From NCBI GenBank assembly GCA_963818475.1, contig CAWFSF010000006.1:864001-928000 (forward strand): DNA of 64,000 nt, written 5' to 3'. A program made the translations under genes and the position numbers. This stretch comes from Nitrospirota bacterium (GTDB lineage: Bacteria; Nitrospirota; UBA9217). The notes beneath the pieces are model-generated. The model made no database searches. It had not been told where the DNA came from and saw only the letters and a list, made by a program, of their open reading frames with translations. This document shows, one piece after another, positions 3,089 to 23,306 of this stretch; positions within the stretch are counted from its first letter, which is position 1, and each line of letters begins with the position of its first letter.

Positions 3089-3236
3089 TTGCTCAATCCC
3101 GTCATTTCAGAGCGCTGGTTCTGGGCCTACGTTCTGAATGGATACGTAACAACGGTGAAGGGAACCGTGATCAAATATAAGTAGTCCAACAAAAGTGGTC
3201 TGACGAGTCTTCAAACTTCACTTTTCAAACTTCTAA
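3089..3236 (+). repeat. Duplicate of the lipoprotein 3' end and downstream DNA (1848-1995)
   Basis: 148 bp with 6 mismatches. Confidence 0.9.
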
Positions 3237-3286
3237 CTTCTATGTCGTCAAGACCCTAAGTGCCTCACAAAAGTTCTGTTGAAAGC

Positions 3287-3333
3287 ACCTGTCATTTCTG
3301 ACAGGTGACAGCGAACAAAAAATCGTTTACAAT
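3287..3333 (+). promoter_or_regulatory. lux-box-like palindrome plus -10 (copy 1)
   Basis: ACCTGTCATTTCTGACAGGT, 21 nt, TACAAT. Confidence 0.75.
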
Positions 3334-3523
3334 CCTGAAACAATTTGTCGAGGGCTGTTTAGTTAAGATCATAACGTAAGGTTTCGACAAGATAAAAAGG
3401 AAACACTTGCTTGTCAGGTCAAGTAAAAATAGACGTGGTAGGTATATGGGGACATTAGAGGGATGGAATGCATCAAACAACAAATGCATCACGTCCCGCG
3501 TCGGTCCCGTATGTGAGGGAACA

Positions 3524-3976
3524 ATGAAGTTAGGAGAGCTGATTCAGCAAGCACTCGACAAACAAGGTATTGCAACTCTTAAGGCGGCATCGAAAAAGGC
3601 AGGAGTATCAGCTGAGTGCTTGAGGATGTTTTTAGGCGCCGGTCATCTGCCGAAAGATAACACGCTCATAAAGATTGCGAAAAATCTGGGGCTGGACGAG
3701 AATTCAATCATACTCGCTGCCCACAGAGAAAGACTCTCGGGGGCCGGCGAGGATAATCTTCTTGTTCCCGTAGTCAGCGAGTACGAGAAAAAAAGGATAT
3801 GGCCGATTTCCGAGGAACAGTGGCAGTACCTCGAAAAAATTATGCGCCAGCCGGAAATTCAACTGATCAGAAAATACCGTCAGGTCTCGACGGAAGGCCA
3901 GGTTCAAATAAAAGGTTATGTCGATTTTATGTTCGTGTCGAACCGTAGCAAGCCACCGTCCGAGAGTGCTCCCTGA
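3524..3976 (+). CDS. XRE/Cro-like HTH regulator
   Basis: LKAASKKAGVSAECLRMF..LPKDNTLIKIAKNLGLD. Confidence 0.7.
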   Translation: MKLGELIQQALDKQGIATLKAASKKAGVSAECLRMFLGAGHLPKDNTLIKIAKNLGLDENSIILAAHRERLSGAGEDNLLVPVVSEYEKKRIWPISEEQWQYLEKIMRQPEIQLIRKYRQVSTEGQVQIKGYVDFMFVSNRSKPPSESAP

Positions 3977-4036
3977 TCGCTCTTTGATAGTCTGTCGAGC
4001 CTGACCGGGGGGCGAGAGCATCTTAGGGTCACTAAA

Positions 4037-4069
4037 TAGTTCGTCACGTATTAACGTCCCCTAAGTTGT
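4037..4069 (+). repeat. 33-bp direct repeat, copy 2
   Basis: Identical to 3054-3086. Confidence 0.9.
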
Positions 4070-4096
4070 CGAGGCAGGTAGAATCATCAAGGTGAT

Positions 4097-4145
4097 GGGG
4101 ACAGGTCTTGAAATATAAGAAACTGCCATTTCAAGACGCGACCTC
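4097..4145. repeat. REP-like hairpin
   Basis: ggggacagGTCTTGAAAT ... ATTTCAAGACgcgacc. Confidence 0.6.
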
Positions 4146-4211
4146 AAATGTTTCGAGAAAAGACAGAGAGCGAACCTGCTCCATTCCTGTAAATGAAGGT
4201 GAGAAAATATC

Positions 4212-4436
4212 ATGCATGCGATATTTGAAAAAGCAAATCAAGGCTTACACGTTATAATATTTTTCCTGGTGCTCATTGGCGTCCTGTCCATATCAGCGCG
4301 CTTGATCGTCAGGTACAAGCTGAAAAACAGCAGTAGATCCAGACGAGAGAAAAGGGTCTTTGAGGATTTAGCCGCGGTTGCAGTCGCCGGACTTCTCGGG
4401 ATCGTAATGCTGCAAACGCTTGGCAATATGAAATGA
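4212..4436 (+). CDS. Small two-TM membrane protein
   Basis: Two hydrophobic helices; RBS aaggtgag. Confidence 0.5.
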   Translation: MHAIFEKANQGLHVIIFFLVLIGVLSISARLIVRYKLKNSSRSRREKRVFEDLAAVAVAGLLGIVMLQTLGNMK

Positions 4437-4693
4437 ACGTCCTGGTAGATTCTGAATCAAGGCTGACATAAAAGTAGGCGTGGACCTATGAGGTTGGATA
4501 TGGTTCGAGAGCGCGATGAGGAAGGTGAAGACCGAGTAACGCAACGTAAGTAACAACGTTATATATCAATAAGCGAATAGACAAACCGATCAGTATAGCT
4601 GAAAGAAAATTATTTTATAAGCTAGCAAAAAGAGAAGCCTCCTGCTAAGAATAAGTTTATTCCGAAACTAAATTCTCGCACAGGAGGCCTCTC

Positions 4694-5986
4694 ATGAATG
4701 ATTCAGATGGTATCAGGCTGCAGGAATTTTGTCAATTCAAGAAAGAGATTCGCGGTTCGACGCAGTATTTGGTCGTAGGACTTGATGTCGCCAAGGAACG
4801 GCATAATGCCTTCTTTGGCACCGCGACCGGTAGGACACTGCACAAAGGGATGTTCTTTGATAATACGTACGATGGTTTCCAAAAGCTCCTGATCCAAACG
4901 GACGCGCTCAAGGTGCAGCATGGCCTGCGCAAAGTAGTTTTCGGACTGGAACCCACGGCCAATTATCATAAACCCCTGGGAGAATATCTCATCAAGGGCG
5001 GACACTTGGTTGTTCTGGTATCTGCTGCAGCCACGTCAAAGAACCGTGAGCTTATGGATGGCCGATGGGATAAGCACGACACCAAAGATGCCGCGAATGT
5101 CGCCGACCTAATCTCCCTGGGAAAATGCCTGTACTACGACTGCCCGGGGGAGGATCTGCGGTCCTTGCGGGGGCTGTTGTCCTTAAAGAAACGGCTCAAA
5201 AAAGAGGAGCACGGTCTCCGGGTCCGCATCCGCAATCAGCTTCTGGCCCAGTACTTCCCGGAAATGGACCAGCACTTCGGTTCGGTAGCGAGTCTGAACG
5301 TGGTCCAGCGATGCATGGATCCCTCGCTTATCTCCCTTATGGAATACGACGAGTTCTGCCGGACGGTATCGCCCGGCAAGGTGAATATGGCGCAGCAGCG
5401 GCGGCTTACGCAGATATGGCGGGCTGCCAAGCAGTCCATTGGCTGCATCGTCGGAGAAGCGGTGTCCGTGGAAGCACAGATCATGGTGATGGGACTTCAC
5501 CAAGTCCGGGAGACGATCAAGACCGTTGAGGACAAAATCGAGGACATCTGCCTGAAGTTTCCGGAGTACTCGTTCCTTCTCATGATTCCCGGTTTCGGTC
5601 CGGATGTGTCTTCCAAGGTCCTGGCTGCCATCGGCGATCCCGAACGCTTTACGAACGGTAAGCAGGTCTTGAAGATGGCCGGATTCGATCTGTGCGCGAG
5701 CCGAAGCGGAAAAACGTCAAATAGCGCCACACCGGTCATCTCCAAGCATGGGAAATCCGATCTCCGCTACGCTCTGTATCAGGCGGCGATCATCAGTTCG
5801 CTCAACTATAAAGAGTTCATCGTCTACCACACGAATAAGATAAAGGGACGGGAGCGGGAAAAAGGGATTGGCACCAAGATGCGGGTGAAACTGGCAGCAA
5901 AACTGTTGATCATCGCTTGGACGCTCATGAAGAAAAAAGAAACATTCGACCCGAAATACCTCAGCCAGGGGGGTAGTAAGGCATAG
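4694..5986 (+). CDS. IS110 DEDD recombinase/transposase
   Basis: VGLDVAK, GLEPTANY, KHDTKDA, IPGFG, SRSGK. Confidence 0.95.
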   Translation: MNDSDGIRLQEFCQFKKEIRGSTQYLVVGLDVAKERHNAFFGTATGRTLHKGMFFDNTYDGFQKLLIQTDALKVQHGLRKVVFGLEPTANYHKPLGEYLIKGGHLVVLVSAAATSKNRELMDGRWDKHDTKDAANVADLISLGKCLYYDCPGEDLRSLRGLLSLKKRLKKEEHGLRVRIRNQLLAQYFPEMDQHFGSVASLNVVQRCMDPSLISLMEYDEFCRTVSPGKVNMAQQRRLTQIWRAAKQSIGCIVGEAVSVEAQIMVMGLHQVRETIKTVEDKIEDICLKFPEYSFLLMIPGFGPDVSSKVLAAIGDPERFTNGKQVLKMAGFDLCASRSGKTSNSATPVISKHGKSDLRYALYQAAIISSLNYKEFIVYHTNKIKGREREKGIGTKMRVKLAAKLLIIAWTLMKKKETFDPKYLSQGGSKA

Positions 5987-6009
5987 GCCGGACTGAAAAT
6001 TGAATTTCG

Positions 6010-6200
6010 ACGTAGAGAGCCCGGGACACAACGTTGAGGCGAATGACCTCGTGAGGGACAATACAGGGCCTCTCATAGAACTTGAGAATCTGGATAAGGG
6101 ATGCTTGGCGGCAACGGCACGCCGGATATTTATAACGCTTAGAGAGCAAGTTCGCTTTACGTGAGAAAGTCGTCGAAGAAAATGCTGATGTCCAAACAGG
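6010..6200 (+). ncRNA. Predicted bridge/seek RNA in IS110-1 right end (boundaries approximate)
   Basis: Conserved with IS110-2 right end; ACAACGT and GGGAC match the target, GGATG and TATAAC match the donor ends. Confidence 0.7.
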
Positions 6201-6304
6201 ACGCATAGGTGAAGTGCGTCTTCAAGAAAAACCGTCAGTTATCGTATTGGAATTTCAGCGAAAGCAAGTTGCACTTGACAAGGGGGCTATAGGATGTCCC
6301 CGAG

Positions 6305-7254
6305 TCGGTTCTGACTACTTAGTATTTGACGAAAAAAATATCGAACATGCGCGAAAACTAATTATTCCACGTGAAAGCAATATGGAGCTTGCCAAAAATA
6401 GGCTAAACAATTTTGCAAATCATACCGGCCTAAAAACGATTTCGGCAAATAATAATGTAAATGTTACTGAACTATTGAACAGATATTTTAGTTGTAGCCC
6501 GCCGTTCGCCGAATCTGGGCAAAAGAAAAATGAGTTTCCCGATGCTATCGCATTAATGACACTAGAAGACTGGGCAAAGCAAAAGAACGTAAAAATTATA
6601 GCTGTTTCTTTAGATAAAGATTGGCACGATTTCGGAAAAGCATCTGAATATATAGACGTTACATCTGATTTAGCTGAAGCAATATCCATCTTCCAGCCTC
6701 ACAATACTGCTTTTGCATTTTGTATCAAACTAGCGAGCGATTTGATGACAACAGCGGGCGAAAAAATACGAGACCCCTTAGAATCGTATTTACGAAATTA
6801 TGTGGAAAATATGGATGTTTATGCCGAAGGAAGTTCTGCGTACTATTTTGAATCTGATTATGTGGAAACAAAATATAATACCTTTGAATTTTTAGTTAAC
6901 CATGAAGACAAGGCACAACTACGGCCGGTACAAATACAGGAAAATACGATTGTTGTAGAGTCTGAACTTACAATAAAGGCAGAAGCATCATCTGATTTTA
7001 CTTTTTCAGTTCATGATTCAATCGATAATGATGATATGAAAATTGGCGATGCAGAGGCTACACGCGACTTCGAATTCGACTCAAAGGTACTTATTACCTT
7101 AACGGGCGATTTCGATAAAGGACTCGATTTTGTAAAGGTAATAGCATTCGAGGTTTTATCTTCGCCAAAGTATGTAGATTTTGGAGAAATCGGCCCTGAG
7201 TGGGGTTACCATGAATTAGGTTATAATGAACTAGGTTATAATGAGTCGCAGTAA
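6305..7254 (+). CDS. PIN-domain (DUF4935-like) protein, probably 5'-truncated
   Basis: PPFAESGQKKNEFPDAIAL and VSLDKDW motifs; no N-terminal DT motif; AT-rich. Confidence 0.65.
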
Positions 7255-7343
7255 GTGCTGCATATAGGTCGATTGTCATCAAATGAGATTTTACCGCCGT
7301 GCTCTCCGCAAGGTGTCGCAGCACGTCAAAAAAGGAGGATAGC

Positions 7344-8360
7344 TTGCACATATTCAATAAACCGAGGGTCTTCTTATCTCATTCAGCAAAGGACAAGACT
7401 TTTATCGAAAGGCTATCGACAGACCTCCATAAATGTCAAATTGAACCGTGGTTGGATACTGAGGAAATCAGGGATGGTAAGTCCTGGCTAAAAGTTATAT
7501 TTGAAGACGGTATCCCGACCTGTGACAGTATCATGGTCTATTTTACCGAGAATTCTATTAATTCGAAAATGGTTGGGAAAGAAATTGACTCATCGCTTAT
7601 CACTCAATTAAGTGATAGTGGTATCGGGATTATTCCGTATGTCCAAAAAGCCGAACTGAGAAAGAAATTAAGGGTTGATTTGCAAACGCTGCATTGCCGT
7701 GAGTGGAATGATGCAAACTACCAAGATCTATTGCCATCTGTAGTTGCAGAGATATGGCATAGTTATATGGAAAGAACTGTAAGTACGGCTGTAGCTCAGG
7801 AGAGAAATAGGCGATTGGAATTGGAACTTGAAATTATTAAGCAACAAGAAAGATACGAATCGTCACCATTTACACCTTCAGAAGAAGCAGATTATAAATA
7901 TATCTATGATTCCCTAGGCCAAACGATTGACATTTGCTTCGGTTTATATGTCAAACACAACTCTTCATCTCTTGAAAAGCGTAAAGACGTCTTCCAATTT
8001 ACCTATCTCGACCTAGTGTTACTCAGTTTACAAAATGGTCAGGTGTATTGTGATTGGGACGAAATTAGGTACAGCTTAATAGGAATATTAAAAGAGCACG
8101 GATATCCGGAAGCTACTGAAGAAGACAGCAGGTATATTAATTCTAAAGACAACATGGGAGCGACATTCGTAGTTAACATAAGAACAATTGGACTAACGAA
8201 GAGAGTGCAGGCGGATGATGGTTTTGGATACCTTAAGCCGCAAGATGAATATTCTGAAAAAGCATTCAGATTTAATTATTGGCTAGGTTTTAATAACAAA
8301 TTGAAGAAAGAACTCACCTTTAAATATACTAAAGGTGAAGAATTGAAAATGAAGTTCTAA
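7344..8360 (+). CDS. TIR-domain protein
   Basis: VFLSHSAKDK..PWLDTEEI..SKMVGKEI; GGAGG RBS before TTG. Confidence 0.85.
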   Translation: MHIFNKPRVFLSHSAKDKTFIERLSTDLHKCQIEPWLDTEEIRDGKSWLKVIFEDGIPTCDSIMVYFTENSINSKMVGKEIDSSLITQLSDSGIGIIPYVQKAELRKKLRVDLQTLHCREWNDANYQDLLPSVVAEIWHSYMERTVSTAVAQERNRRLELELEIIKQQERYESSPFTPSEEADYKYIYDSLGQTIDICFGLYVKHNSSSLEKRKDVFQFTYLDLVLLSLQNGQVYCDWDEIRYSLIGILKEHGYPEATEEDSRYINSKDNMGATFVVNIRTIGLTKRVQADDGFGYLKPQDEYSEKAFRFNYWLGFNNKLKKELTFKYTKGEELKMKF

Positions 8361-8705
8361 GTGAACTTTTTTGTCGAAGAAAAGCAAAGTTAAAACAATA
8401 TTACCATAGTGTCTCAAAGTGTTTATCATTTGAAGGCACTCCAAATATACTAAAACTTAAAAAGGAAATGATGAAAACTCTTTTTGAAATTGAGAATTTT
8501 GGAACAATCGATACCGACAGGGGACTATTGGGGGACTATTGGGGTCAGACTTTAAAATTGACATTCTGGCTTTTCTCGGGGAGCTACGGAGATCTATATA
8601 GGGTCGGTCTGCTTTCTTACCATTCGGACTCTTTAGAAAATGGACTTTAATTGGGATGGATGCTTTGCACTCTGAATCCTCGCCCACCAGGAAAGGACCG
8701 CTGTC

Positions 8706-9245
8706 ATGTCCTTTGAATTCTGGCTCCTCTACGCAGTCACCGTGTTCCTCGCCTCGATCAGCCCCGGTCCCAGCATGCTGCTTGCACTGACGCACGGCAT
8801 GAAGTACGGGGCGCGGCGGACCATGACGACGGCGTCGGGCAACGTCGTCGCTTCGCTGCTCCAGGCGGCGGTATCTATCGCAGGTCTGGGCGCAATCCTT
8901 ACCCTGTCGGAAGGCGTGTTCTTGGTCATCCGGTGGCTGGGGGCAGGGTACCTCATCTACCTCGGCATCGTCACGTGGCGATCATCCTCGCTCTTGCAGG
9001 CAGGAGAGGAGGGCGGCGCGCCCGGTCCCGAGCTTTCGCTTCGGGGCATGTTCCTCCGGTCGTTCTTCGTTGCAGCGGGGAACCCGAAGGCGCTCATCGC
9101 CTTCTTGTGCTTCATGCTCTATGCAACGGCGGGTCAGCGCATCCTTGCGCTCTTCTCTCGGCAGGCCGCCGGCAGAAACCTGAACCGGATCGCCGGCGGC
9201 GCCTTTATCGGGGCCGGTATCGGGCTCGCTGTAAGCAGGCGATGA
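8706..9245 (+). pseudogene. LysE/RhtB translocator copy with 30-aa in-frame deletion
   Basis: Near-identical to 10619-11248 but GNPKA is joined to LIAFL. Confidence 0.8.
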
Positions 9246-9436
9246 GGGGTGGAAGGGGCAGGGTTCAGGGTTCAGATCTCTCATCAAGACCGCCCCTCGC
9301 CCTAGCCCTCTAACTCTAGGGGGAGGGAAAAGGGGAGAGGGTGCTTGGTTATTGAGAATCTTCAGGGTCGGGTCTACTTTCTTTTTCTCATTCCTTCCGC
9401 ATATCGACATCACAGCCTTCCCTCGGAGACCTAGAA

Positions 9437-9910
9437 CTACTTGGCGGACAGAACAATGTCCCCCTTGGTGCCTTCCACAATGGCAATGAGCTCACTCTGC
9501 TCCTTTGGAGGGACCTTGAACTTATTCAGGCTCTTCTTGAAGTCAACCACCATTGCCTGCCACTCTGTCTCGGTGATGTCAAGATGACTGTGAGCATCCT
9601 TCATGGAGCGCCCCGTGTACTGGCAGGGGCCGCCGGTCACCTGGCAGACCAGGGCGGTCACCTGAAATTTCAGTCCGGCTTTGGGTACCCGCTGTCTTGC
9701 TTTGTTGATTTTCGGATTTGCGTTCAGCGTCTTGTTGATCAACAGCCGTTCAATAAAGTCGTCCACGAGGGTCGCGATGCTGTAAACGCCCCCAAGCCGA
9801 TCATGCAGCGACGGCTCCTGCTTCTCCTGAGCGCCGGCGGGGACAGCATTCCCCAGGACGGTCAGGACGACCAGGAATGAAAAAGCCATTACCATACTGA
9901 GTTTCTTCAT
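9437..9910 (-). CDS. Group 1 truncated hemoglobin with signal peptide
   Basis: SLHDRLGG, TGGPCQYTGRSMKDAHSHLDIT; N-terminal signal ending AGA. Confidence 0.88.
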   Translation of the reverse strand: MKKLSMVMAFSFLVVLTVLGNAVPAGAQEKQEPSLHDRLGGVYSIATLVDDFIERLLINKTLNANPKINKARQRVPKAGLKFQVTALVCQVTGGPCQYTGRSMKDAHSHLDITETEWQAMVVDFKKSLNKFKVPPKEQSELIAIVEGTKGDIVLSAK

Positions 9911-10064
9911 AGGTTCCACAACTCCTTTCTTGGTGAAAAAAACTTTTTCTCCCCCCTCGCTTTCCATCCAGAAAGGACGGGCCATCGGAGAATTTTTCTA
10001 AAGTATATCCCTGCCCTCCGAATTGTCAAGCCGGCATACTGCGCCTTAAATGCCCTCATACGCC

Positions 10065-10111
10065 ACCTGTCGGTTTTGACAGGTGACACACGTTGAAAAT
10101 ATTCATATAAT
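10065..10111 (+). promoter_or_regulatory. lux-box-like palindrome plus -10 (copy 2)
   Basis: ACCTGTCGGTTTTGACAGGT, 21 nt, TATAAT. Confidence 0.8.
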
Positions 10112-10122
10112 AAACCATTACC

Positions 10123-10190
10123 TCGCTCTTCCCCCAGATCGTCGGCGGCGCCTTTATCGGGGCCGGTATCGGGCTCGCCGTAAGCAGGCG
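10123..10190 (+). pseudogene. Third, heavily deleted lysE fragment
   Basis: gctcttcccccagatcgtcggc fused to ggcgcctttatcggggccggtatcgggctcgccgtaagcaggcg. Confidence 0.75.
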
Positions 10191-10402
10191 CTGAGCAGCC
10201 ATCGTCCTTCCTTCCTGCTCTCTAAATTAATGAACTTCACCTGTGCTATAATTAAAAAGCGATCATCCAAGAAACAGTAGTACTGTGATTTACAATGGTT
10301 GTGAAAGAAAGATATAAATGGATATTTAGTGAATCTTTTTGATGTCTGAACGATGATCGCGAGCCGTGATTTGAAATCAAAAAGGCCGGGAGAACATACA
10401 CC

Positions 10403-10588
10403 ATGGGATTATGGTCAAAAATAAAAAATGCCGTTAAGAAGGCCGTTACGGTTGTTGTCAATATCGTTAAAGGCATTGTACGTGACCTGTTGTGTACTAC
10501 AAGGGGACGTAGTTGCACCCGTTGCGTAGCGGACAATGATGCAGTGACCGCAGTCGACTTTATTTGGGATGGAGACATCGCACTCTGA
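10403..10588 (+). CDS. Small protein with cationic amphipathic N-terminus
   Basis: MGLWSKIKNAVKKAVTVVVNIVKGIV; RBS gggag. Confidence 0.45.
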   Translation: MGLWSKIKNAVKKAVTVVVNIVKGIVRDLLCTTRGRSCTRCVADNDAVTAVDFIWDGDIAL

Positions 10589-10618
10589 ATCCTCGCCCAC
10601 CAGGAAAGGACCGCGACC

Positions 10619-11248
10619 GTGTCCCTTGAATTCTGGCTCCTCTACGCAGTCACCGTCTTCCTCGCCTCGATCAGCCCCGGTCCCAGCATGCTGCTTGCCC
10701 TGACGCACGGCATGAAGTACGGTACGCGGCGGACCATGACGACGGCGGCGGGCAACGTCGTCGCTTCGCTGCTCCAGGCGGCGGTTTCCATCGCAGGTCT
10801 GGGCGCAGTCCTGACCCTGTCAGAGGGCGTGTTCTCGGTCGTCCGGTGGCTGGGGGCGGGGTATCTCATCTACCTTGGCATCGTCACGTGGCAGTCTTCA
10901 TCGCTCTTGCAGGCAGGAGAGGAGGGCGGCGCGCCCAGTCCCGCGCTGACGCTTCGCAGCATGTTCCTCCGGTCGTTCTTCGTTGCAGCGGGGAACCCGA
11001 AGGCGATCATCTTCTTTACGGCGCTCTTCCCCCAGATCGTCGGCAGCGGCGTGCGGCGGCTCTCCGAAGTCTCGATCCTGCTTGCGACGCTGGCGCTCAT
11101 CGCCTTCTTGTGCTTCATGCTCTATGCAACGGCTGGTCAGCGCATCCTTGCGCTCTTCTCCCGGCAGGCCGCCGGCAGACACCTGAACCGGATCGCCGGC
11201 GGCGCTTTTATCGGGGCCGGTATCGGGCTCGCCGTAAGCAGGCGATGA
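10619..11248 (+). CDS. LysE/RhtB family translocator
   Basis: ISPGPSML, GAGYLIYLG, GNPKAIIFFTALFPQ. Confidence 0.92.
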   Translation: MSLEFWLLYAVTVFLASISPGPSMLLALTHGMKYGTRRTMTTAAGNVVASLLQAAVSIAGLGAVLTLSEGVFSVVRWLGAGYLIYLGIVTWQSSSLLQAGEEGGAPSPALTLRSMFLRSFFVAAGNPKAIIFFTALFPQIVGSGVRRLSEVSILLATLALIAFLCFMLYATAGQRILALFSRQAAGRHLNRIAGGAFIGAGIGLAVSRR

Positions 11249-11471
11249 GAGACATGAATATCTTCCGGATTGCCCTTCTTATTTCAGTTCACTGAAAAAA
11301 CCCTCTTGTCTCAGTAGACAGCAATTCTTGCACCCTCCCCTTAGTTCCCTCCCATCGAAGGAAGAGGAGCGTTAATCTTGCTGCGGGGTAGCTCATCATG
11401 AGCCTGTTCCGTTGCGATCCTTGTTCTGGGTCCCGGCCGCATTGCCGGTAATGGCCTTGTTGCGTGCGATC

Positions 11472-11533
11472 GCTACCAGGGAAAAATTCCGGAAAATTAG
11501 GGATTCCCCGGTTGTCATCCGGTCGGAAAGCTG
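11472..11533 (+). promoter_or_regulatory. Upstream motif shared with the luxR promoter
   Basis: AAAATTAGGGATTCCCCGGTTG identical at 22307-22328. Confidence 0.65.
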
Positions 11534-11623
11534 TTACAGATATGCATAGAGGGTGAATATAAAGAAAAGACCTTCTTATCGTATCCGGTCATACCTGAGA
11601 CTGGAATAATCGAGGATATCTCC

Positions 11624-12022
11624 ATGGATGGTGTGCAAGAAAAAGTCGTTCCTGATTCTGAACGCCGACGGGAACAACGAAATCCGGTCTCGTTCCCCCC
11701 TGATTATCAGCGCTATATCAACTGCGAAGTAAAAATGGACGATGTCTTCGTTTCCGTCATTCTTCACAACTTCAGCGAAAGCGGTGTTCTCTTCGAAAGC
11801 CGCGTGCCGTTCGAAATAAAATCGTATGCCGACTGCGTCATTTCGATATCCCAGTCGCTTTCAAGAAAAATCGCTTTCGCTATTCGAGTAAAACACTGTC
11901 AGAAAAAAAATAATGCCTATTTTGTCGGTGCGGTGATCGAGACGCCTGTCGATGCAACCTGGTTTAATATCTTTCGAGCAGTTGCCGATTTTATCAGGAA
12001 GCGGCAGGGCGATATATATTGA
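11624..12022 (+). CDS. PilZ domain protein
   Basis: RREQR and NFSESG motifs. Confidence 0.8.
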   Translation: MDGVQEKVVPDSERRREQRNPVSFPPDYQRYINCEVKMDDVFVSVILHNFSESGVLFESRVPFEIKSYADCVISISQSLSRKIAFAIRVKHCQKKNNAYFVGAVIETPVDATWFNIFRAVADFIRKRQGDIY

Positions 12023-12113
12023 AAAGGGCGTAGCACAACGGCATTGGACCAGACATATTCAGGACCATCTGACGTCTTGCCTGAAATTCCTCTTTGAATT
12101 CCTTATATAAGCC

Positions 12114-12160
12114 ACCTGTCAGTTTTGACAGGTGACAAACGTTAAAAATATTCATATAAT
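12114..12160 (+). promoter_or_regulatory. lux-box-like palindrome plus -10 (copy 3)
   Basis: ACCTGTCAGTTTTGACAGGT, 21 nt, TATAAT. Confidence 0.8.
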
Positions 12161-12203
12161 TATTTTTAGGTAGTTGCCAAACATCCCACCAGGAGGCAGA
12201 AGA

Positions 12204-14069
12204 ATGCAAAACTTCAGACAGATCCTGAAAAAAGACAAGGCGCTCCGGGAAGAGGTCGAGCATCTGGTCGAAAGCGGGAGAAACCTGCCCATAGCCAGGC
12301 GGCAAGGCGTCAATTCTTCCACCATCAAAAAAGCTATGATCGGGCCGCACAACGAGCTGCCAAGGGCAGAGGCAATGGTCCAGCGGCATCTACGGCCAGC
12401 CCTGCTGATCCGGAACAACAAGATCGAAACCCCGGAGTCTCTGGAAATCCGCAAGCGTCTGCTTCCGTACATCGGGAAAGTGGAGAGCAGGGTTCCTTCC
12501 GTGGGCAGGATCGAGTTCGAGAAGATCGGCCGGCCCTTCGGCGGTACCGGTTGGATGATCAGCGAGGATGTCATCGTCACGAACAGGCACGTTGCCGCGC
12601 TCATGGCGACGAAAAAGGGAAACACCATAACCTTCATTAAGAACCAGATGGGCGAGACGGTCCAGGCATGCATTGATTTCAAGGAGGAGTTTCTCGGAAA
12701 TAATCTCGCTACTCCCGAATTCGAGATCCCCATCGAGAAAGTGCTGTTCATGACGGACAACATCAATACCCAGCCCGATATCGCCTTTGTCAAGATACGG
12801 AAGCATCCCCGGTTGCCCCAGCCCATCCCCATCAGCGATACTCCTCTTACAAAAGATCAGTTCGTCTCCGTGATAGGATATCCCGCGTACGATCCCGACG
12901 GGATCATCAGCCCCGGTGCAGCAACGGATGTGTTTCACGACATCTACGGTGTGAAGCGGTGCTCGCCGGGCGAGATCATGGAGTACGACAAGAACGGCTG
13001 GTATTTCTTCCATGACTGCACGACCCTGGGCGGGAACTCCGGCTCCGTGGTGCTGGACAATTCGACCGGGTATGCGGTCGGTCTCCATTTCATGGGAGAA
13101 GTGAAAAAGGAAAATTACGCCGTGAAAAGCACGGAGATCATCAAGTACCTCCGCAAGATAAAAACGTCCGTGTACATCAGATCGGTCCCCGGTGAAGTGA
13201 GGGCCAAGGAACGGGCCGGTGGTCCGGAACCGGAAGCGGCTCCGGAAAGTTACGACGACCGCAAGGGTTACCAGGTAGATTTCCTGGATCCCAGGTTTCC
13301 CGTGCCCCTCCCCGTCGTCTCCCGGAACAAACAGCAGGTGCTCACTTTCGGCAGCAACCGCAAAGGAGCGTCGGAGCTGAAATACCATCACTTCAGCGTT
13401 GTGATGAACAAGGAACGTCGCATGTGCTTCTTCAGCATCTGCAACATCGACGGGAAGCAGAGCAAGCGGGGTGTAGCGAGGACAGGCTGGAAATGGGACC
13501 CCCGGCTCCTGAAAAAGTACCAGATCAAGGACGAATGTTACGGCAATCCTCCCCACTTTGCCCGCGGTCACATGACCCGCAAGGAGGACCCCATCTGGGG
13601 AAGCCTGCAAACGGCGCGTGCTGCCTGCTCGGACACCTTTCACGTCACCAACGCAACTCCCCAGATGCAACCGTTCAATGCCCCGGTCTGGCTCGCGCTC
13701 GAAGATTATGCGCTCGAGAACGCCCGCCAGGATGATATGAAAATCACGGTGATCACGGGCCCCATCTTTCATGATGAGGATCCGGTCAGGTTCGATGTGC
13801 AGGTCCCTGTCGAGTTTTTCAAGATCATCGCGTTCATCCATGACGAGACCGGCAAATTATGCGCCACAGCCTACACCGTCTCGCAGGCGGATTATCTGAC
13901 CAACGAAGAGTTCGTATACGGGGAATTCAAGACGTACCAGGTCTCGATCAAGTCGATCGAAAACAAAACAGGGATCGATTTCGGCAAGCTTGCAACGGCA
14001 GATCCGAAAAAAGGGGAAGAGGCGCTTTCCACGGCGCTTATGAACGTCGAGGATATTGTTTTCAATTAA
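12204..14069 (+). CDS. Trypsin-like serine protease fused to DNA/RNA non-specific endonuclease
   Basis: TNRH, PDIA, GGNSGS; ARGH, TNATPQ, FNAPVWLALE. Confidence 0.9.
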   Translation: MQNFRQILKKDKALREEVEHLVESGRNLPIARRQGVNSSTIKKAMIGPHNELPRAEAMVQRHLRPALLIRNNKIETPESLEIRKRLLPYIGKVESRVPSVGRIEFEKIGRPFGGTGWMISEDVIVTNRHVAALMATKKGNTITFIKNQMGETVQACIDFKEEFLGNNLATPEFEIPIEKVLFMTDNINTQPDIAFVKIRKHPRLPQPIPISDTPLTKDQFVSVIGYPAYDPDGIISPGAATDVFHDIYGVKRCSPGEIMEYDKNGWYFFHDCTTLGGNSGSVVLDNSTGYAVGLHFMGEVKKENYAVKSTEIIKYLRKIKTSVYIRSVPGEVRAKERAGGPEPEAAPESYDDRKGYQVDFLDPRFPVPLPVVSRNKQQVLTFGSNRKGASELKYHHFSVVMNKERRMCFFSICNIDGKQSKRGVARTGWKWDPRLLKKYQIKDECYGNPPHFARGHMTRKEDPIWGSLQTARAACSDTFHVTNATPQMQPFNAPVWLALEDYALENARQDDMKITVITGPIFHDEDPVRFDVQVPVEFFKIIAFIHDETGKLCATAYTVSQADYLTNEEFVYGEFKTYQVSIKSIENKTGIDFGKLATADPKKGEEALSTALMNVEDIVFN

Positions 14070-14156
14070 AATGAGCCTGCCTGTTGTAACGGCACTTTGG
14101 CCAGAAACTTTGATCCGCTGTTGTAACGAGGACATTCAACACCTAAAGTGCATATA

Positions 14157-14204
14157 GGGTCACTTCTTACCCTTGTCATAATTGTCCCACAAAGAAGTGA
14201 CCCC
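14157..14204. repeat. REP-like hairpin; empty equivalent of the intron insertion site
   Basis: GGGTCACTTCTT ... AAGAAGTGACCCC; second copy at 16781-16829. Confidence 0.85.
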
Positions 14205-14325
14205 AATTGTCCTTATGATGAGTGAGGTTTAAATGGCTGAAACACTTTAAATCAGGTGCAATATATCGGAAGCAACAATAACCCAGAGCAATTCCAGAAT
14301 TCAATTCTTGACAAGGAGGAGTTCT

Positions 14326-16659
14326 ATGAAGACCAAATTTTTCGTTGTGGCGATGCGCAAGGGCATCGTACTGGAAAGTCTAGTCGTTCTGCTTTTTTTG
14401 ATTGGATTGGCTTCTCAAAGTTCTGCCACTCCGCCGACGCCGCCGGCGCAAATCGTACTCCCTGAAGGACTGCTTGAAGAAGTCACTCTCACCGGAAAGG
14501 TTTTGCCGATACAGATCAAAATGAATGAAGAAATCATCGAGCTGCAAGTAGTTGCTACGCAACAGAAGCTGGTCCGCGGCAAAGGTGCTTTTGAACAGCC
14601 TGCGCCCGAAGTACTCATGGAAAAGAGCCAAAAGGCGATAAAAGAGAAGAAAGAAGATCATGAAGTTCCCTTAAAACTGGAACAGCCGGGAAATTATCTT
14701 ATCGATATCCGGATAAAGGGAAAAACCGCGAAAGGCGTAGGTTTTTCGGACCGACTCAACCGTTACGTTGTCATCAAAGAAAACGGCGTGGCAACGATGA
14801 TCAGCCCCGCAGAATTTCAGAGGCGTAACGAGAAGGCGCGAGAAAAGCTTTTTATGAATGAAAACGAGAAAAATACGAATAATCATCCCATTCGAGTACT
14901 TTTTGAGGACACAGTAAAGGTTCCGGAAGGCGTAAGAAAAACGATAAAGCCTTATGATGTTCCGAAAGACCGTCGCCTGGAAGTGCGTCCTGAGGGACCC
15001 TCTGAATTTTTACGCAAACATAGTATCGATCACAGTGCGACCAGCTGGACTTCAAAAGATCCAATCACGGTTAGTGGACGCCTAGTATTTCAGGACATCG
15101 ATGGCGTGGGGAAGCCGCTGGTGAACGTCGGCGTCTACCTCTGGGATTCAGATGTTTTCAGCGACGAATACCTGGGCGCTGTCGCCACCGATTGGGATGG
15201 CCGCTGGTCATTCACGGTGAACAACGATGACGGCTGGCTACAAGATGGCCGGGATATATATTATACGTTCAAACTCGAAAATACCCGTCTCAGTACGGGG
15301 AGTTGCGGCGGCGGGGCTTACGAGTGGAAATCGGCAGTTCATGACGACCTCTCTGAGGGGACGGTGTTAGATTTCGGAGACGAAACGGCCAGCACCAGCA
15401 TGGAGGCGCTACAGGTATGGAGTACGCTTAATCTGGCATGGAACCACGCCGCCGCAGTGGGTGGCTGGGACCCGGGGAGGATCGATTCGTGCTATCCTTC
15501 CTCCGGCACGTTTTATAACGGGACGGTAAACGTGCTCGGCTCCGACAATGATGGCCCCGATTCAATTACCCACGAATACGGTCATGGCCTCATGGCGCAT
15601 GCATATACGGACGGCGATCCTTCCCCGGGCGGGGCGCATGGTTTCGGCGATTGCAATCAGAATCGATCACTGTCGTGGTCTGAAGGGTGGGCGACCGCCT
15701 TTATGCTCTCCGTCCGGCCCGATAATCGCTATAACTGGCACGAAGGGGACGGAGGGCAGGAACTCGAATCGTTCCAGTCAACCTGTCACACGGGGGAGAC
15801 CAGCGAAGGATGGGTCGTCGCCGCGCTGCTCGATATGATGGACTCGAACGACGACGACAACGGCGGCAATCTGAATCGCGGTCGCAACGGCGCGCGGGAT
15901 CATAATACCGGCAACGAGGTTGCACTCGCAACAATCCTGCGGGACACCATGGTCGGCAGTAGTCATCACAACGACGTCCTGGAGTTTTGGAGCAGCCTAT
16001 CGGGAGAACTCGACGCTACCCATCGAAATCTGGCGCAGGAAATAATGAACTATGAATGGATGAGTGTTTTGATGCCTTCTTCATGCGTAGCGACGAAAGT
16101 TGCGACGGCGCGCGAAGCAAACCGGGAACCGATGCTTGCCGGACTGCGCAAATTTCGGGATCTCGCCCTCAAAAACTGGTCGCATGGACGCGAGCTGATC
16201 AATATGTACTATCGTAACAGTCCGGAAATAGCGATAACTCTCTTGAGCAATCCAAAGTTGATTCCGGCAGCGTTGAGCGTCATGAGGCATTTTTCAGAAA
16301 TCGGCACTACCGTTAGCAACCATCGCGCATATACTAAGAAGATGGTACAAAATCCGGAAGTGCTTCCTGGAGAAGTGATTGCATCTATCGAGGCCATTAC
16401 TCAGGTATTGTATAAGAACGGGAGTGCCGAATTGAAGGCCGACATAGATCGCGTGCGCAAGGATGTCGATGGTCTCAAGGGCGTGAGACTGCAGGAATTA
16501 CAGGAGCGCGTTACAAAGTTGAAAGCCGGGGAGCAAGGCAAAGGGCTTACCGCTATCAAGCAAAACAGCTTGACGCCAGCAAGCCAGAAAGCCTTAAAAG
16601 AATTGAAATTACAGACAATCATAAAGCAAGGGTTGCCGGAGATAAAGCCGGCACCGTAG
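14326..16659 (+). CDS. Secreted putative zinc metalloprotease with CFI-box-CTERM-like C-terminal region
   Basis: Signal peptide; ITHEYGH and WSEGWA; CVAT..LRKFRD..YYRNSP. Confidence 0.7.
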   Translation: MKTKFFVVAMRKGIVLESLVVLLFLIGLASQSSATPPTPPAQIVLPEGLLEEVTLTGKVLPIQIKMNEEIIELQVVATQQKLVRGKGAFEQPAPEVLMEKSQKAIKEKKEDHEVPLKLEQPGNYLIDIRIKGKTAKGVGFSDRLNRYVVIKENGVATMISPAEFQRRNEKAREKLFMNENEKNTNNHPIRVLFEDTVKVPEGVRKTIKPYDVPKDRRLEVRPEGPSEFLRKHSIDHSATSWTSKDPITVSGRLVFQDIDGVGKPLVNVGVYLWDSDVFSDEYLGAVATDWDGRWSFTVNNDDGWLQDGRDIYYTFKLENTRLSTGSCGGGAYEWKSAVHDDLSEGTVLDFGDETASTSMEALQVWSTLNLAWNHAAAVGGWDPGRIDSCYPSSGTFYNGTVNVLGSDNDGPDSITHEYGHGLMAHAYTDGDPSPGGAHGFGDCNQNRSLSWSEGWATAFMLSVRPDNRYNWHEGDGGQELESFQSTCHTGETSEGWVVAALLDMMDSNDDDNGGNLNRGRNGARDHNTGNEVALATILRDTMVGSSHHNDVLEFWSSLSGELDATHRNLAQEIMNYEWMSVLMPSSCVATKVATAREANREPMLAGLRKFRDLALKNWSHGRELINMYYRNSPEIAITLLSNPKLIPAALSVMRHFSEIGTTVSNHRAYTKKMVQNPEVLPGEVIASIEAITQVLYKNGSAELKADIDRVRKDVDGLKGVRLQELQERVTKLKAGEQGKGLTAIKQNSLTPASQKALKELKLQTIIKQGLPEIKPAP

Positions 16660-16829
16660 TTTCAATAATAGATATGAAGGCCAATGTATCAGACGTTTAT
16701 CATTCGAGATTTTGACTCTTGCCTTCCAATACAAATGGGCTTCGTAGCTACGTCTTTTGAGGGAGAACCGGTGTCATATAGGGTCACTTCTTTATCATTG
16801 TCATCATTGTCAAGATCAAAGAAGTGACC

Positions 16830-18742
16830 GTTCGCAGTAACAACTGATTATCTCGCGGGTTCAAGTCCCGCCCAAGGAGTTGTCCGTACACCTTGGTAGC
16901 ACGAGGGAGCGGCGTCTGAGCAATCAGAGGTCGTGAGTTCCCAAACGGCAAAGCTACAGGCCGCAGCGAAAGCGAACCTACACGTAGCCTCGTAACTTAT
17001 TCGGAGATGCCGACCTTGTGGTCAAATGGGGAAGGCCGATGCGCGCTGATTCAGACAACGGAATCGATCTGTGCGATCTCCCGGGGTAGCAGGGGCGGCA
17101 TGCAGCGGAAGATAAGCAGTCCAGTGCTGGAGACCCCATACAGTGATGTTAGAGGAACATCAACCGGTGCGTATAAGGAAACGAAAACGCACTGGGCTGT
17201 ATCGGGAGTCGGAGGGGTCCATAGTATCGTTTGAAGGTATGGGACAACATAACCCTGCCCGAGAAAAGGGACCCTGCTTTGTTCACGCAACCGAAGGAGA
17301 GAGGATGAGGGGATTGCAGAGATGCTAACAACCCCAGATACAATCAGGACACTCCAGAGGAAGCTCTACCGTAAGGCCAAGCAAGAACCGGCCTACCGCT
17401 TTTACGCGCTCTACGACAAGATACACCGGGCCGACATCCTCAGTCACGCCTACCATCTTGTCAGGGCCAACAAAGGAAGCGCCGGCATCGACGGCGTCAC
17501 CTTCGAGGCCATAGAGACCGGAGAAGGGGTAATCGCCTTTTTGGCGGAGCTGCAAGAAGCACTGAAGAGCAAGACCTATGCACCAAACCCTGTAAAGCGC
17601 GTCATGATCCCCAAAGGAGACGGCACAGAGCGTCCCTTGGGAATCCCGACCATTAGGGACAGGGTGGCCCAGATGGCCGTAAAACTGGTCATCGAACCGA
17701 TATTTGAAGCGGATTTTATAGACACCTCATACGGATTCAGACCCAAGAAGTCGGCCCATGATGCAATCGAAGACATATCGTATGCCCTTAACTGCGGTTA
17801 TACGGAAGTCATCGACGCCGATGTGTCCAGGTACTTCGACACCATTCCCCATGCCAAACTCATGGCCGTGGTCGCCGAGCGCATCGTTGACAGTGCGATT
17901 CTGCACATTATCCAGATGTGGCTCAAGGCCCCGGTTATGGAAGTGGACAAGGACGGAACGAAGCGCAACATCGGCGGCGGCAAGGCAAACACCAAAGGAA
18001 CACCGCAGGGCGGTGTCATCTCGCCGCTCCTGGCCAATCTCTATCTGCACCTGTTAGATAGGATATGGCATAAGAAGAAGCTTCAGTATAGGCTCGAAGC
18101 GCGTCTTGTCCGGTATGCCGACGATTTTGTCGTGCTGTGCAGAAAGGGAACTGAGCAGCCGATGGCGGTTGTGCGCCGGGTGCTCGAACGACTGGGACTT
18201 GTACTCAATGAGAACAAGACCCGCATGGTGAACGCCAAGCAAGAAGGCTTCAACTTCCTTGGATTTGAACTTCGTATGGGGAAAAGTCGGAGAACGGGCA
18301 ACCTTTACCCCCTTATACAACCGTCACGAAAAGCCCTGAAGAAGATCAAAGACAGCGTTACCGCTCTTACACACAGGCGGATGACGCCGAAGCCGCTTAC
18401 TATGATAATCGAAGATATCAATACCGCCCTCCGGGGCTGGGTCGGGTACTTTCATTACCGCAATAGCAGCAAGGCGTTCAATCGTCTCAAGTTTCATGTG
18501 GAAGCGCGAGTGCGCACGCATCTGCGAAAGCGGCATAAGATCAAAAGCAGGGCAGCGGGGTTTACCAGGTTCACCAACAGGTCTTTGTACGAGAAGTATG
18601 GGCTCTATAAAGTGCCGACGACAGCGGGCTGGCTGAAGGCGCATGCCTTGCGGTGAAGAACATCGGAAAGCCGTGTGCGGGAAAACTGCATGCACGGTTT
18701 GATGAGGGAGGGCTGGTCAATACGACCAGCTCTCTACTCTAC
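16830..18742 (+). mobile_element. Group II intron inserted at GTGACC/CC of a REP-like hairpin
   Basis: 5' GTTCG; domain V aagccgtgtgcgggaaaactgcatgcacggtttgatgagg; 3' ctactctAC; flanks rejoin to match 14191-14207. Confidence 0.9.
17322..18656 (+). CDS. ltrA: Group II intron reverse transcriptase/maturase without endonuclease domain
   Basis: RPLGIPTIRDR, GTPQGGVISPLLAN, RYADD, LRGWVGYF. Confidence 0.95.
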   Translation: MLTTPDTIRTLQRKLYRKAKQEPAYRFYALYDKIHRADILSHAYHLVRANKGSAGIDGVTFEAIETGEGVIAFLAELQEALKSKTYAPNPVKRVMIPKGDGTERPLGIPTIRDRVAQMAVKLVIEPIFEADFIDTSYGFRPKKSAHDAIEDISYALNCGYTEVIDADVSRYFDTIPHAKLMAVVAERIVDSAILHIIQMWLKAPVMEVDKDGTKRNIGGGKANTKGTPQGGVISPLLANLYLHLLDRIWHKKKLQYRLEARLVRYADDFVVLCRKGTEQPMAVVRRVLERLGLVLNENKTRMVNAKQEGFNFLGFELRMGKSRRTGNLYPLIQPSRKALKKIKDSVTALTHRRMTPKPLTMIIEDINTALRGWVGYFHYRNSSKAFNRLKFHVEARVRTHLRKRHKIKSRAAGFTRFTNRSLYEKYGLYKVPTTAGWLKAHALR

Positions 18743-19020
18743 CCAATAGTTCCCAAAGTTGGCCCGATGCACAAACTGGTGTTAGTGGGGCGTAGATCAG
18801 GAGAAGGGCAGCTGGAACATTATTTCCCCAGAGTGAACGCCTCATCCAGCTTGACCGAAGGTATCAAGAAATCCACGGATGATTTGCTTTCCAGCTATGC
18901 GATGGGTATTTGGTCAGCCGTACGGGGTCATAACTGTCGGCATGTCCTCCCATTATTCGTCAAACATCGCGTTTCCTCCTTTACCGATCGATGTATCTCC
19001 TTAAAACCCGAAAAAACACC

Positions 19021-19067
19021 ACCTGTCAGTTCTGACAGGTGACAAGTGCTAAAAATATTCATATAAT
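19021..19067 (+). promoter_or_regulatory. lux-box-like palindrome plus -10 (copy 4)
   Basis: ACCTGTCAGTTCTGACAGGT, 21 nt, TATAAT. Confidence 0.8.
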
Positions 19068-22951: not shown

Positions 22952-23224
22952 GCAACCAAACGTCAACAGTAGTGGAGCAACAACTGCACGGTCAAATTGA
23001 TCGTGCCTTTATTCGCATTATTATGCATTGGAATGCAATTTTATGATAATACCCTAAAAATACCCTGACAATATTTTTATTCATAAAAACAATGCGTTTA
23101 TCATTATTTCATAGCTGATGCTGTATGAATTTAAAAATTTAGGTTGATAAATATATAAAGTGTTGCTATAGTCGCGCACTAGTACGAAAGTATTAGCAAG
23201 TAGAATACGAATTAGACCTTGTCC

Positions 23225-23306
23225 CATCTTCGCAAGCTCGAGGCAACAAGCCGATCTCACGCAGTTGCCATCGGCCTTCAAGTGGGGGATCATCGAGTCT
23301 CATTGA
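23225..23306 (+). pseudogene. Degenerate duplicate of the luxR 3' end
   Basis: aagctcgaggcaacaagccgatctcacgc..gggatcatcgag..cattga resembles 22880-22951. Confidence 0.75.

Follow-up and report, generated by a model that had tools for sequence, protein, structure and literature searches.

In a 64,000-nucleotide stretch of DNA from a Nitrospirota bacterium (GenBank assembly GCA_963818475.1, contig CAWFSF010000006.1, positions 864,001 to 928,000; the whole stretch is called the window below), we found four promoters that each carry a 20-bp inverted repeat of the lux-box type at one fixed distance from the -10 hexamer. As far as the sequence allows us to judge, the four boxes are likely to be operators of co-regulated promoters under a LuxR-family protein. 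The best overall explanation, which we favor with modest confidence, is that one promoter cassette has been copied, that its palindrome would be a LuxR-family operator joining four co-regulated transcription units, and that the likeliest regulator would be P0001, a short LuxR-family protein encoded downstream of the fourth box, working in a feedback circuit that needs no autoinducer.

A search of both strands of all 64,000 bases with ACCTGTCNNTTYTGACAGGT gave exactly four matches, at 3287, 10065, 12114, and 19021, all on the plus strand, and 100 dinucleotide-preserving shuffles of the window gave none (expectation 0 versus 4 observed). These are the four boxes named in an earlier reading of the same DNA, here called the initial annotation. 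At all four sites the box has the form ACCTGTCnnTTyTGACAGGT, its outer 14 bases being invariant, and the conserved unit extends beyond the 20-mer to the 25-mer CACCTGTCnnTTyTGACAGGTGACA (repeat family D9). The flanks of site 1 differ from those of the other sites, and at site 4 the palindrome is perfect over 22 bp (19020-19041). The window has eight copies of the extended half-site CACCTGTC versus 1.39 expected, and all eight lie inside the four boxes. When up to 3 mismatches were allowed in the 14 outer bases, five further matches appeared, with 1.92 expected in all. Only one match lies near the regulon, with three mismatches (19457-19476), and it was rejected as a fifth site: it has no -10 hexamer at +21, it falls inside the end of the receiver gene, and it is missed by the foreign-promoter model described below.

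The position of the boxes relative to the core promoter is equally constant. Exactly 21 nt separate the box from its -10 hexamer at all four sites (TACAAT at site 1, TATAAT at sites 2-4), just as the initial annotation had stated. Absent from that annotation is a -35-like hexamer, GTGACA, which consists of the last two box bases plus GACA and stands 17 nt from the -10 hexamer at each of the four sites. Scored against the sigma-70 consensus, site 1 reached 10/12 and sites 2, 3, and 4 reached 11/12 each; in a consensus scan in which 20 kb were examined, the four cassettes ranked within the top five sigma-70-like promoters. Each box is oriented toward a downstream gene on the plus strand. The predicted box center, placed from the -10 hexamers alone, is about -43.5, the position of a class II LuxR activator. 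The lux box of Vibrio fischeri is centered at -42.5, and its native promoter has the same 21-nt gap. All four window boxes read ACCTGTC-N6-GACAGGT, with C3/T4 and A17/G18 separated by 12 nt, and thus follow the CT-N12-AG rule for lux boxes (PMC4338825; this and the other papers are cited from the excerpts of them that were available). By sequence, then, the identification as lux boxes proposed in the initial annotation stands.

Other identities for the palindrome found less support. At gathering thresholds, the only Rfam match in the window was a group II intron, with no match at the boxes. A LexA-type SOS box was considered, and its pattern CTGT-N8-ACAG does fit the sites; it was dropped because the boxes co-occur with LuxI and LuxR genes in other genomes, as shown below. 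The exact strings of the window boxes were not found in the literature searched.

We extended the search in a single scan of 185,579 species genomes with the pattern ACCTGTC-N6-GACAGGTGACA, which yielded 72 loci (given L numbers here) against about 17 estimated by chance. Twenty-two of these, from 16 assemblies, were taken as Nitrospirota or close relatives, L057 being included by judgement. In this group 25 of 44 sides have the hexamer TAnnnT at a distance of exactly 21 nt from the box, and the runner-up offset, 23, accounts for 6 of 44; elsewhere the 21-nt offset is found on 0 of 28 sides in 14 Pseudomonas loci and on 4 of 76 in the remaining loci. The geometry is kept in the 16 assemblies although their flanking sequence otherwise differs. 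A sequence-only model was then built from 24 distinct foreign promoters and applied to the window with filtering disabled. It recovered all four sites on the plus strand (site 1, 38.8 bits, E 4.7e-11; site 2, 32.7 bits, E 3.7e-09; site 3, 40.0 bits, E 1.9e-11; site 4, 46.1 bits, E 2.3e-13), with matches spanning model positions 2-59, whereas matches on the minus strand covered the palindrome only. No other site in the window scored under E=3.

Relative to the GACA extension, a -10 hexamer is present on 16 of 24 GACA sides and on 10 of 24 opposite sides, with both present in 9. Ten Nitrospirota loci carry TCTTTTTT or TTTTTTTG on the flank without GACA, where there is no -35-like hexamer, and nine of the ten keep TAnnnT at +21 there. 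Those nine are two-sided promoter modules in which conservation ends about 5 bases into the transcript on each side. We note the full arrangement, TAnnnT (mostly TATACT)-N21-box-GACA-N17-TAnnnT, in L001, L003, L004, L013, L023, L025, L035, L048, and L069; it is conserved to about +5 in both directions, and the genes that it precedes are unrelated. A tblastx comparison of the window with the 72 loci linked only the LuxR-type helix-turn-helix (HTH), an HD-GYP gene, RHS repeats, a Y1 transposase, and weak receiver and kinase matches, and hence no orthology of the regulated genes between genomes was found by this comparison. One locus, L041 (Thiohalomonadaceae), shares 31 identical nucleotides with the window (1995-2025 = 19015-19045), namely box 4 plus six upstream flanking bases. 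The shared stretch adjoins a gene for a 641-aa GerE protein; a chance match is possible.

Genes for LuxI- and LuxR-type proteins adjoin the box in several of these genomes. We scanned 225 open reading frames (ORFs) from 60 of the 72 loci with Pfam (all loci except L016, L021, L028, L047, L050-L054, L056, L061, and L067), part of the ORF set being limited to frames no shorter than 80 aa and no farther than 1.4 kb from the box. Autoind_synth genes adjoin the box in L006 (Nitrospiraceae) and in L071 (Moraxellaceae; gene order luxI, DUF4902, luxR), and genes with both Autoind_bind and GerE adjoin it in L029, L037 (Syntrophorhabdus), and L071. In L006 a gene for a 250-aa LuxR (523-1275) is convergent with the LuxI-type gene (1196-2002), which has the box immediately upstream; relatives of this LuxR at 79-97% identity contain PF03472 and PF00196. 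The L002 box, with TATCTT at +21, stands directly ahead of a gene for an HTH-only GerE protein. Such HTH-only proteins (about 85-100 aa) are encoded directly behind the box at L002 2001-2215 (a Nitrospirota assembly) and at L044 2005-2430 (Pseudomonas mandelii).

Comparison with described systems places the window boxes close to known ones. The lux box of V. fischeri is ACCTGTAGGATCGTACAGGT (PMC4444344, PMC5655343), and LuxR acts there together with RNA polymerase at the lux promoter (PMC5655343). The window boxes share with it the 20-bp inverted repeat, the outer ACCTGT...ACAGGT, and the CT-N12-AG core, and share with the luxI promoter, as excerpted, the placing of the box ahead of the -10 hexamer with no independent upstream activator site. 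They differ in that the host is a member of the Nitrospirota and not a gammaproteobacterium, in having a good -35-like TGACA after the box, in lacking a nearby luxI, and in that the local LuxR homologue has no ligand-binding core. A closer relative by phylum is the site ACCTGGCGGTTCCGCCAGGT bound by NspR1 of Nitrospira, which is located between the synthase gene and a divergently oriented GGDEF/EAL gene and serves both directions; NspR1 is a full-length receptor dependent on C8-homoserine lactone, with the cognate synthase NspI (PMC8553950). Its site and the window boxes have ACCTG...GTTC...CAGGT in common. The inner half-site reads GGC in Nitrospira versus GTC in the window, and the Nitrospira box is two-directional, like the cassettes in 9 of the 24 Nitrospirota box orientations, whereas the window boxes are one-directional. 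One of the Nitrospira targets is a second-messenger gene, and PilZ, receiver, and HD-GYP genes are found near boxes in the window and in L013. Because the box adjoins LuxI and LuxR genes elsewhere and a related box has been published for Nitrospira, we conclude that the window probably contains a regulon of the lux-box type.

A gene downstream of box 4 that is missing from the initial annotation encodes P0001, the only LuxR-family protein of the window. No Autoind_bind domain (PF03472) was found in P0001 at E 0.01, and for this reason we class the protein as a LuxR derivative and not as a receptor. Its closest solved structures in the PDB are nevertheless those of quorum-sensing receptors (CviR, E 2.7e-17, followed by RhlR, SdiA, and LasR), with no response regulators among them. 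Nor does it resemble a NarL/FixJ-type protein, since no Response_reg domain is present and the receiver encoded at 19124-19492 is a separate protein. In BLASTP against the LuxR of L006, residues 4-56 of P0001 aligned with residues 7-59 and residues 47-167 with residues 128-249, and an alignment with P0014 (256 aa, PF03472 plus PF00196, 49% identity) left a central gap in P0001. The N-terminal 55 residues and the linker plus HTH of P0001 align to the LuxR proteins of L006 and L037 and to P0014. The two BLASTP segments and the alignment gap together indicate that about 70-100 residues of the ligand-binding core are missing. Judged by these alignments, P0001 is a derivative of an autoinducer-binding LuxR lineage of the Nitrospirota in which the autoinducer-binding domain has eroded.

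This short form recurs. P0001 has 13 homologues of 114-210 aa at 58-81% identity, and none of the 14 aligned family members has a match to Autoind_bind at E 0.01. A profile search of 1.84 billion representatives returned 22 proteins at E <= 1e-30; its top ranks were held by at least seven distinct short clusters (50% identity, 163-213 aa), which aligned end to end, and then by many proteins of about 250 aa. Autoind_bind is absent from six of seven short clusters and the seventh keeps a sub-threshold C-terminal piece, whereas all three full-length controls were positive. By these comparisons the short LuxR form is a conserved family and no one-off. We also observed an element of about 135 nt, about 80% identical between 11410-11545 and 22225-22360, which lies upstream of a PilZ gene (11624) and of the P0001 gene (22445). 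It holds the inverted repeat CCGGAAAATTAGGGATTCCCCGG and has no Rfam match.

Proteins with some of the properties of P0001 have been described. A survey of LuxR solos includes two in Nitrospirae and reports 20-bp palindromes upstream of solo transcription units (PMC4338825). P0001 resembles the solos in being a LuxR-family regulator with no linked luxI, but solos by definition keep the autoinducer-binding domain, which P0001 lacks, and the truncated LuxR forms in the excerpted survey have lost the DNA-binding domain and retain the binding domain, the opposite of P0001 (PMC4338825). Also described are engineered LuxR proteins with N-terminal deletions, which are constitutively active at PluxI and, when placed under that promoter, have been used in a positive-feedback amplifier fed by one- or two-component sensors (PMC2845093). 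That circuit is like the one we propose for the box-4 unit with its receiver, kinase, and P0001. It is synthetic, however, and P0001, whose activity is predicted, keeps its first ~55 residues, only the middle being deleted.

The four cassettes appear to be related by descent. Sites 10065, 12114, and 19021 have 71 nt in common (77-80% identity), a similarity that breaks off immediately behind the -10 hexamer (repeat D5). The cassette at site 1 is a near-copy of one in L046 (90.6% identity over 64 nt), and the downstream DNA of the two is unrelated. Both observations agree with the suggestion of the initial annotation that the promoter spread by duplication, and the 71 nt shared by three promoters are consistent with duplication. 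Mobile or propagated promoters are known as a concept. The window cassettes are like them in that a homologous promoter stands ahead of unrelated genes, both within the window and between genomes, and unlike them in that the unit bears a recognizable regulator site. Because the propagated unit carries such a site, its copying would recruit genes into the regulon.

The genes that follow the boxes are listed in Table 1 together with the cassettes. Behind box 1, the initial annotation had placed an XRE regulator. The small HTH protein found there supports this to a modest degree: it matches phrog_638, 'transcriptional regulator', at E 1.1e-7 over residues 1-76 and a repressor family more weakly, but Pfam HTH_19 (16.5 bits, E 0.0081) stays under its cut-off and no significant PDB match was obtained. 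Behind box 2, a predicted cationic peptide did not survive inspection. Its ORF (10083-10280) takes as start codon the GTG within the -35-like hexamer, a position ahead of where any promoter 2 transcript would begin, and reads LysE remnants out of frame. These remnants directly follow promoter 2 and repeat parts of the intact exporter gene (D13, 10118-10150 = 11016-11048, 91%; D6, 10134-10195 = 11188-11249). The LysE exporter, which the initial annotation had assigned to box 2, is the first intact gene after promoter 2, about 500 nt away; its best NCBIfam match, at 117.8 bits versus a cut-off of 209, is 'homoserine/homoserine lactone efflux protein'. A third, internally deleted LysE copy lies at 8706-9245 (repeats D2 and D3), so that three copies are present in different states of decay.

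The trypsin-endonuclease reported behind box 3 was borne out, both domains being found in one protein (Endonuclease_NS, 146 bits, and Trypsin_2, 59.5 bits, in Pfam; PHROG nuclease, E 1.4e-11). The gene for a 783-aa protein is probably the second gene of the box-3 unit. The protein has no family in Pfam, PADLOC, or PHROGs, CFI-box-CTERM being sub-threshold at 37.1 bits versus a cut-off of 40. Behind box 4, the receiver was likewise correct, whereas the 'secreted peptidase' that was said to follow it had no match in Pfam, NCBIfam, PADLOC, PHROGs, or PDB. Between the kinase gene and the P0001 gene there is a gap of 323 nt, in which no terminator-like site was found on the plus strand. Across the regulon proteins, PADLOC gave weak protease-domain matches for the protease-nuclease only and none for the others.

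Table 1. Promoter cassettes, genes, gene remnants, and repeat arrays in the window.
Feature	Position	Strand	Details
Promoter cassette 1	3286..3333	+	box 3287-3306 (ACCTGTCATTTCTGACAGGT), GTGACA 3305-3310, TACAAT 3328-3333; predicted start ~3340
Promoter cassette 2	10064..10111	+	box 10065-10084, GTGACA 10083-10088, TATAAT 10106-10111
Promoter cassette 3	12113..12160	+	box 12114-12133, GTGACA 12132-12137, TATAAT 12155-12160
Promoter cassette 4	19020..19067	+	box 19021-19040, GTGACA 19039-19044, TATAAT 19062-19067
Small helix-turn-helix regulator, 150 aa	3524..3976	+	ATG 3524, GAGGGA 4 nt upstream; longest ORF from 3407
LysE 3' remnant	10118..10195	+	two pieces of the intact copy joined via an internal deletion
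Intact LysE/RhtB-family exporter, 209 aa	10619..11248	+	Pfam LysE 91.5 bits
Trypsin-like protease/DNA-RNA non-specific endonuclease fusion	12204..14069	+	ATG 12204; AGGAGG 12191-12196, 7 nt upstream
783-aa protein, no known family	14308..16659	+	hydrophobic N-terminus and HEYGH motif, both by eye
Stand-alone response-regulator receiver, 122 aa	19124..19492	+	Pfam Response_reg 79.1 bits
401-aa protein, N-terminal hydrophobic stretch	19547..20752	+	no family match
Cytoplasmic PAS histidine kinase, 410 aa	20889..22121	+	Pfam PAS_9, HisKA, HATPase_c
LuxR-family regulator P0001, 168 aa	22445..22951	+	GerE (PF00196) 69.8 bits, residues 104-159
Frameshifted C-terminus remnant of a second LuxR-family copy	23216..23306	+	repeats D10, D14; 82-83% to 22880-22951
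7-nt repeat arrays	402-484, 829-911, 1426-1522	+	
7-nt repeat arrays	1513-1610, 1961-2001, 3202-3242	complement	

All four boxes lie within the variable first part of the window. Mobile and accessory DNA abounds in the first 45 kb (IS110, a group II intron, IS200-like and ISL3 elements, broken IS110 genes), which also contain a PIN/TIR pair of low guanine-plus-cytosine (GC) content and a Tc-like SpvB/TcdB/RHS cluster. The right third consists of housekeeping genes (glmS, a UvrD-type helicase gene, panD, and gatAB), and GlmS and GatA of the window cluster at 90% identity with proteins from Nitrospirae bacterium GWC2_56_14.

Several features of this region are recorded here in their own right. 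Arrays of a 7-nt tandem repeat (TGAAGTT/TGAAGGG and its complement) flank four small genes at 496-858 (23S_rRNA_IVP), 914-1441, 1629-1943, and 2124-2789. A perfect, sharply bounded 33-nt direct repeat (3054-3086 and 4037-4069) brackets box 1 and the HTH gene, and 3089-3236 is a 96% copy of 1848-1995; the two together look like an insertion or rearrangement scar. Between 6214 and 8360, where GC content is low (39.8%), lie genes for PIN_12 and TIR_2 proteins whose matches to TIR defence families are weak; the two may be a pair of defence genes. Just upstream of box 4 stands a complete group II intron (16862-18742) with a reverse transcriptase/maturase gene (17322-18656), and its reverse transcriptase belongs to a 90% cluster of 109 members. 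Right after the P0001 gene, 23365-38659 encodes large secreted-looking proteins (fn3/BNR, Kelch) and the Tc-like SpvB/TcdB-mid/RHS cluster, and contains no box. SpvB or RHS genes occur near boxes in L009, L040, L044, and L060, in the last of these directly downstream, and genes for transglutaminase-like giants adjoin boxes in L025 and L035 and also in L010, which lacks the two-sided cassette. IS200-like Y1 transposase genes were found in the window (39299-40291), in L034 (1137-2003), and in L007 (1148-1606). The Y1 transposases of the window and L034 are long (288-330 aa), and that of the window also has a C-terminal HTH. The proximity of the L034 and L007 genes to a box is probably coincidental.

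From these elements we propose the following mechanism. The four elements would be copies of one promoter cassette whose 20-bp palindrome is the predicted site of a dimeric LuxR-family regulator with a GerE-type HTH. If transcription starts seven bases past the -10 hexamer, the box would occupy -53 to -34, a class II activator position abutting TGACA, and the bound dimer would help RNA polymerase at the four promoters. Unit 1 would then supply a small HTH regulator; unit 2 the LysE/RhtB exporter, reached through a gene remnant; unit 3 the protease-nuclease fusion and a large HExxH protein; and unit 4 the receiver, the 401-aa protein, and the PAS kinase, with transcription probably reading through into the P0001 gene. 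P0001 may activate these promoters without an autoinducer, box 4 giving it positive feedback, and the input would be either its own expression level or the co-encoded two-component proteins. We favor P0001 as the binder because it is the sole LuxR-family protein in the window, belongs to a lineage in which full-length members are encoded beside identical boxes, and is encoded at the end of the box-4 unit. Taken by itself, this assignment is tentative and its chances seem somewhat less than even. A dependence on autoinducer is unsupported, because neither a luxI nor an intact LuxR gene is present in the window.

A number of points weigh against this mechanism. The core promoters are near consensus (11/12), which is atypical of promoters that depend on an activator and would agree with repression. 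The P0001 gene has no box of its own and lies 3.4 kb from box 4, behind the 323-nt gap with its different conserved element, and a protein that has lost most of its N-terminal domain might dimerize less well. Because only 64 kb of the genome were read, a full-length LuxR encoded elsewhere may be the true binder. The comparative evidence has its own bounds. Because the scan pattern carried the GACA extension, the foreign set is biased toward one flank. Its 22 Nitrospirota-like loci are non-independent, one assembly contributing four, a second three, and a third two, and L003, L023, and L035 carry a near-identical cassette. Most foreign boxes have no LuxR or LuxI gene within 2 kb. GerE domains of any kind were found in 8 of the 225 ORFs, a count with no control set for enrichment; since Autoind_synth is in general a rare domain, we regard the two synthase matches as more telling than this count.

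The most serious competitor is classical acyl-homoserine-lactone quorum sensing, in which the boxes would answer to cell density through a LuxI and a full-length LuxR whose genes lie in another part of the chromosome, and P0001 would be a competitor, an amplifier, or a decaying paralogue. A complete LuxR/LuxI pair does exist in L006, of the same phylum, with the box beside the LuxI-type gene, and large families of LuxI-type (101 matches) and LuxR proteins (284 matches) are found in Nitrospirae, Thermodesulfovibrionia, and Geobacteraceae records. Moreover, the NspR1/NspI pair has been demonstrated by experiment in Nitrospira (PMC8553950), and one of the targets in the window is an RhtB-like exporter whose best, sub-cut-off name is homoserine/homoserine lactone efflux. 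Against this stands the absence of both Autoind_synth and Autoind_bind from the 56 ORFs of the window, in agreement with the initial annotation, which had noted no luxI. None of the 101 LuxI-type homologues, nor of the best 120 of the 284 homologues of the L006 LuxR, was placed on the contig of the window, a weak result of a word-filtered search in which other contigs went unseen. The signal chemistry of the lineage is itself uncertain, because in some sources these LuxI-like proteins go by the name of N-acyl amino acid synthases of exosortase systems and because the best NCBIfam match of P0001, far under its cut-off, is the exosortase-associated regulator EpsA. Overall, we consider classical quorum sensing rather unlikely here, and that the system answers to an acyl-homoserine lactone by any route is doubtful to at least the same degree.

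The palindrome could instead be a repressor operator through which the HTH protein of box 1 (autoregulated and phage-repressor-like) or a LuxR of the EsaR kind silences four strong constitutive promoters. The near-consensus GTGACA-17-TATAAT would suit such a design, as would the two-base overlap of the box with the -35-like hexamer, the PHROG regulator and repressor matches of the gene after box 1, and the wealth of mobile elements in the region. This reading is weakened because the L046 cassette is followed by unrelated DNA with no such HTH gene and because the nine loci that have no -35-like hexamer on one flank keep TAnnnT at +21, as expected of activator-dependent promoters. The box also fits the lux-box definition, and an XRE-type HTH was found once (L030) in the 225 box-near ORFs versus 8 GerE and 2 LuxI-type matches. 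We therefore judge repression to be distinctly improbable. More improbable by far is that the repeats serve no regulator and are hairpins, either terminators or elements like repetitive extragenic palindromes (REP-like) mobilized by a Y1 transposase, or else a mobile promoter with a passenger palindrome. If transcribed, the palindromes would indeed form stable hairpins (-14.2 to -18.6 kcal/mol). The 71 nt that three copies have in common mark these as recent duplicates, and in L034 and L007 a Y1 transposase gene is found about 1 kb or less from the box, with one more in the window. Yet a T run, as in an intrinsic terminator, follows the palindrome in only one of eight strand versions (site 4, minus strand), and the Y1 transposase gene of the window has no flanking box according to the foreign model. 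The facing of all four boxes toward a downstream gene, with fixed spacing and invariant outer bases, and the retention of this geometry in 16 assemblies with differing flanks also argue for a bound regulator.

Taking a LuxR-family operator as the preferred reading of the boxes, we see here probably a circuit of an ordinary kind whose host is unusual, its variant features being a pocket-less LuxR and a copied cassette. Known principles are thus extended to a new host and a variant regulator, and none is overturned. A bolder scenario, which we regard as unlikely, is that a Nitrospirota LuxR lineage has shed its ligand pocket stepwise (from about 250 to about 200 to 168 aa, and to HTH-only forms elsewhere) while keeping its regulon, and has been rewired into a self-amplifying switch that is fed by two-component proteins, works without a diffusible signal, and grows by the copying of a 50-70-bp cassette. 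If true, the genes under this pocket-less switch would be those for a protease-nuclease, an exporter, and a second regulator.

The regulons of uncultured anaerobic Nitrospirota are almost unknown, and in this window one short motif ties together genes of otherwise unrelated function. The rule of a box, 21 nt, and a -10 hexamer provides a search key for LuxR-type regulons across the phylum, where the box precedes genes for large secreted and toxin-like proteins of the transglutaminase-like, RHS, and SpvB types. The eroded LuxR family would be a natural case of a signal receptor turning signal-independent, and the copied cassette may be one route by which genes are recruited into a regulon.

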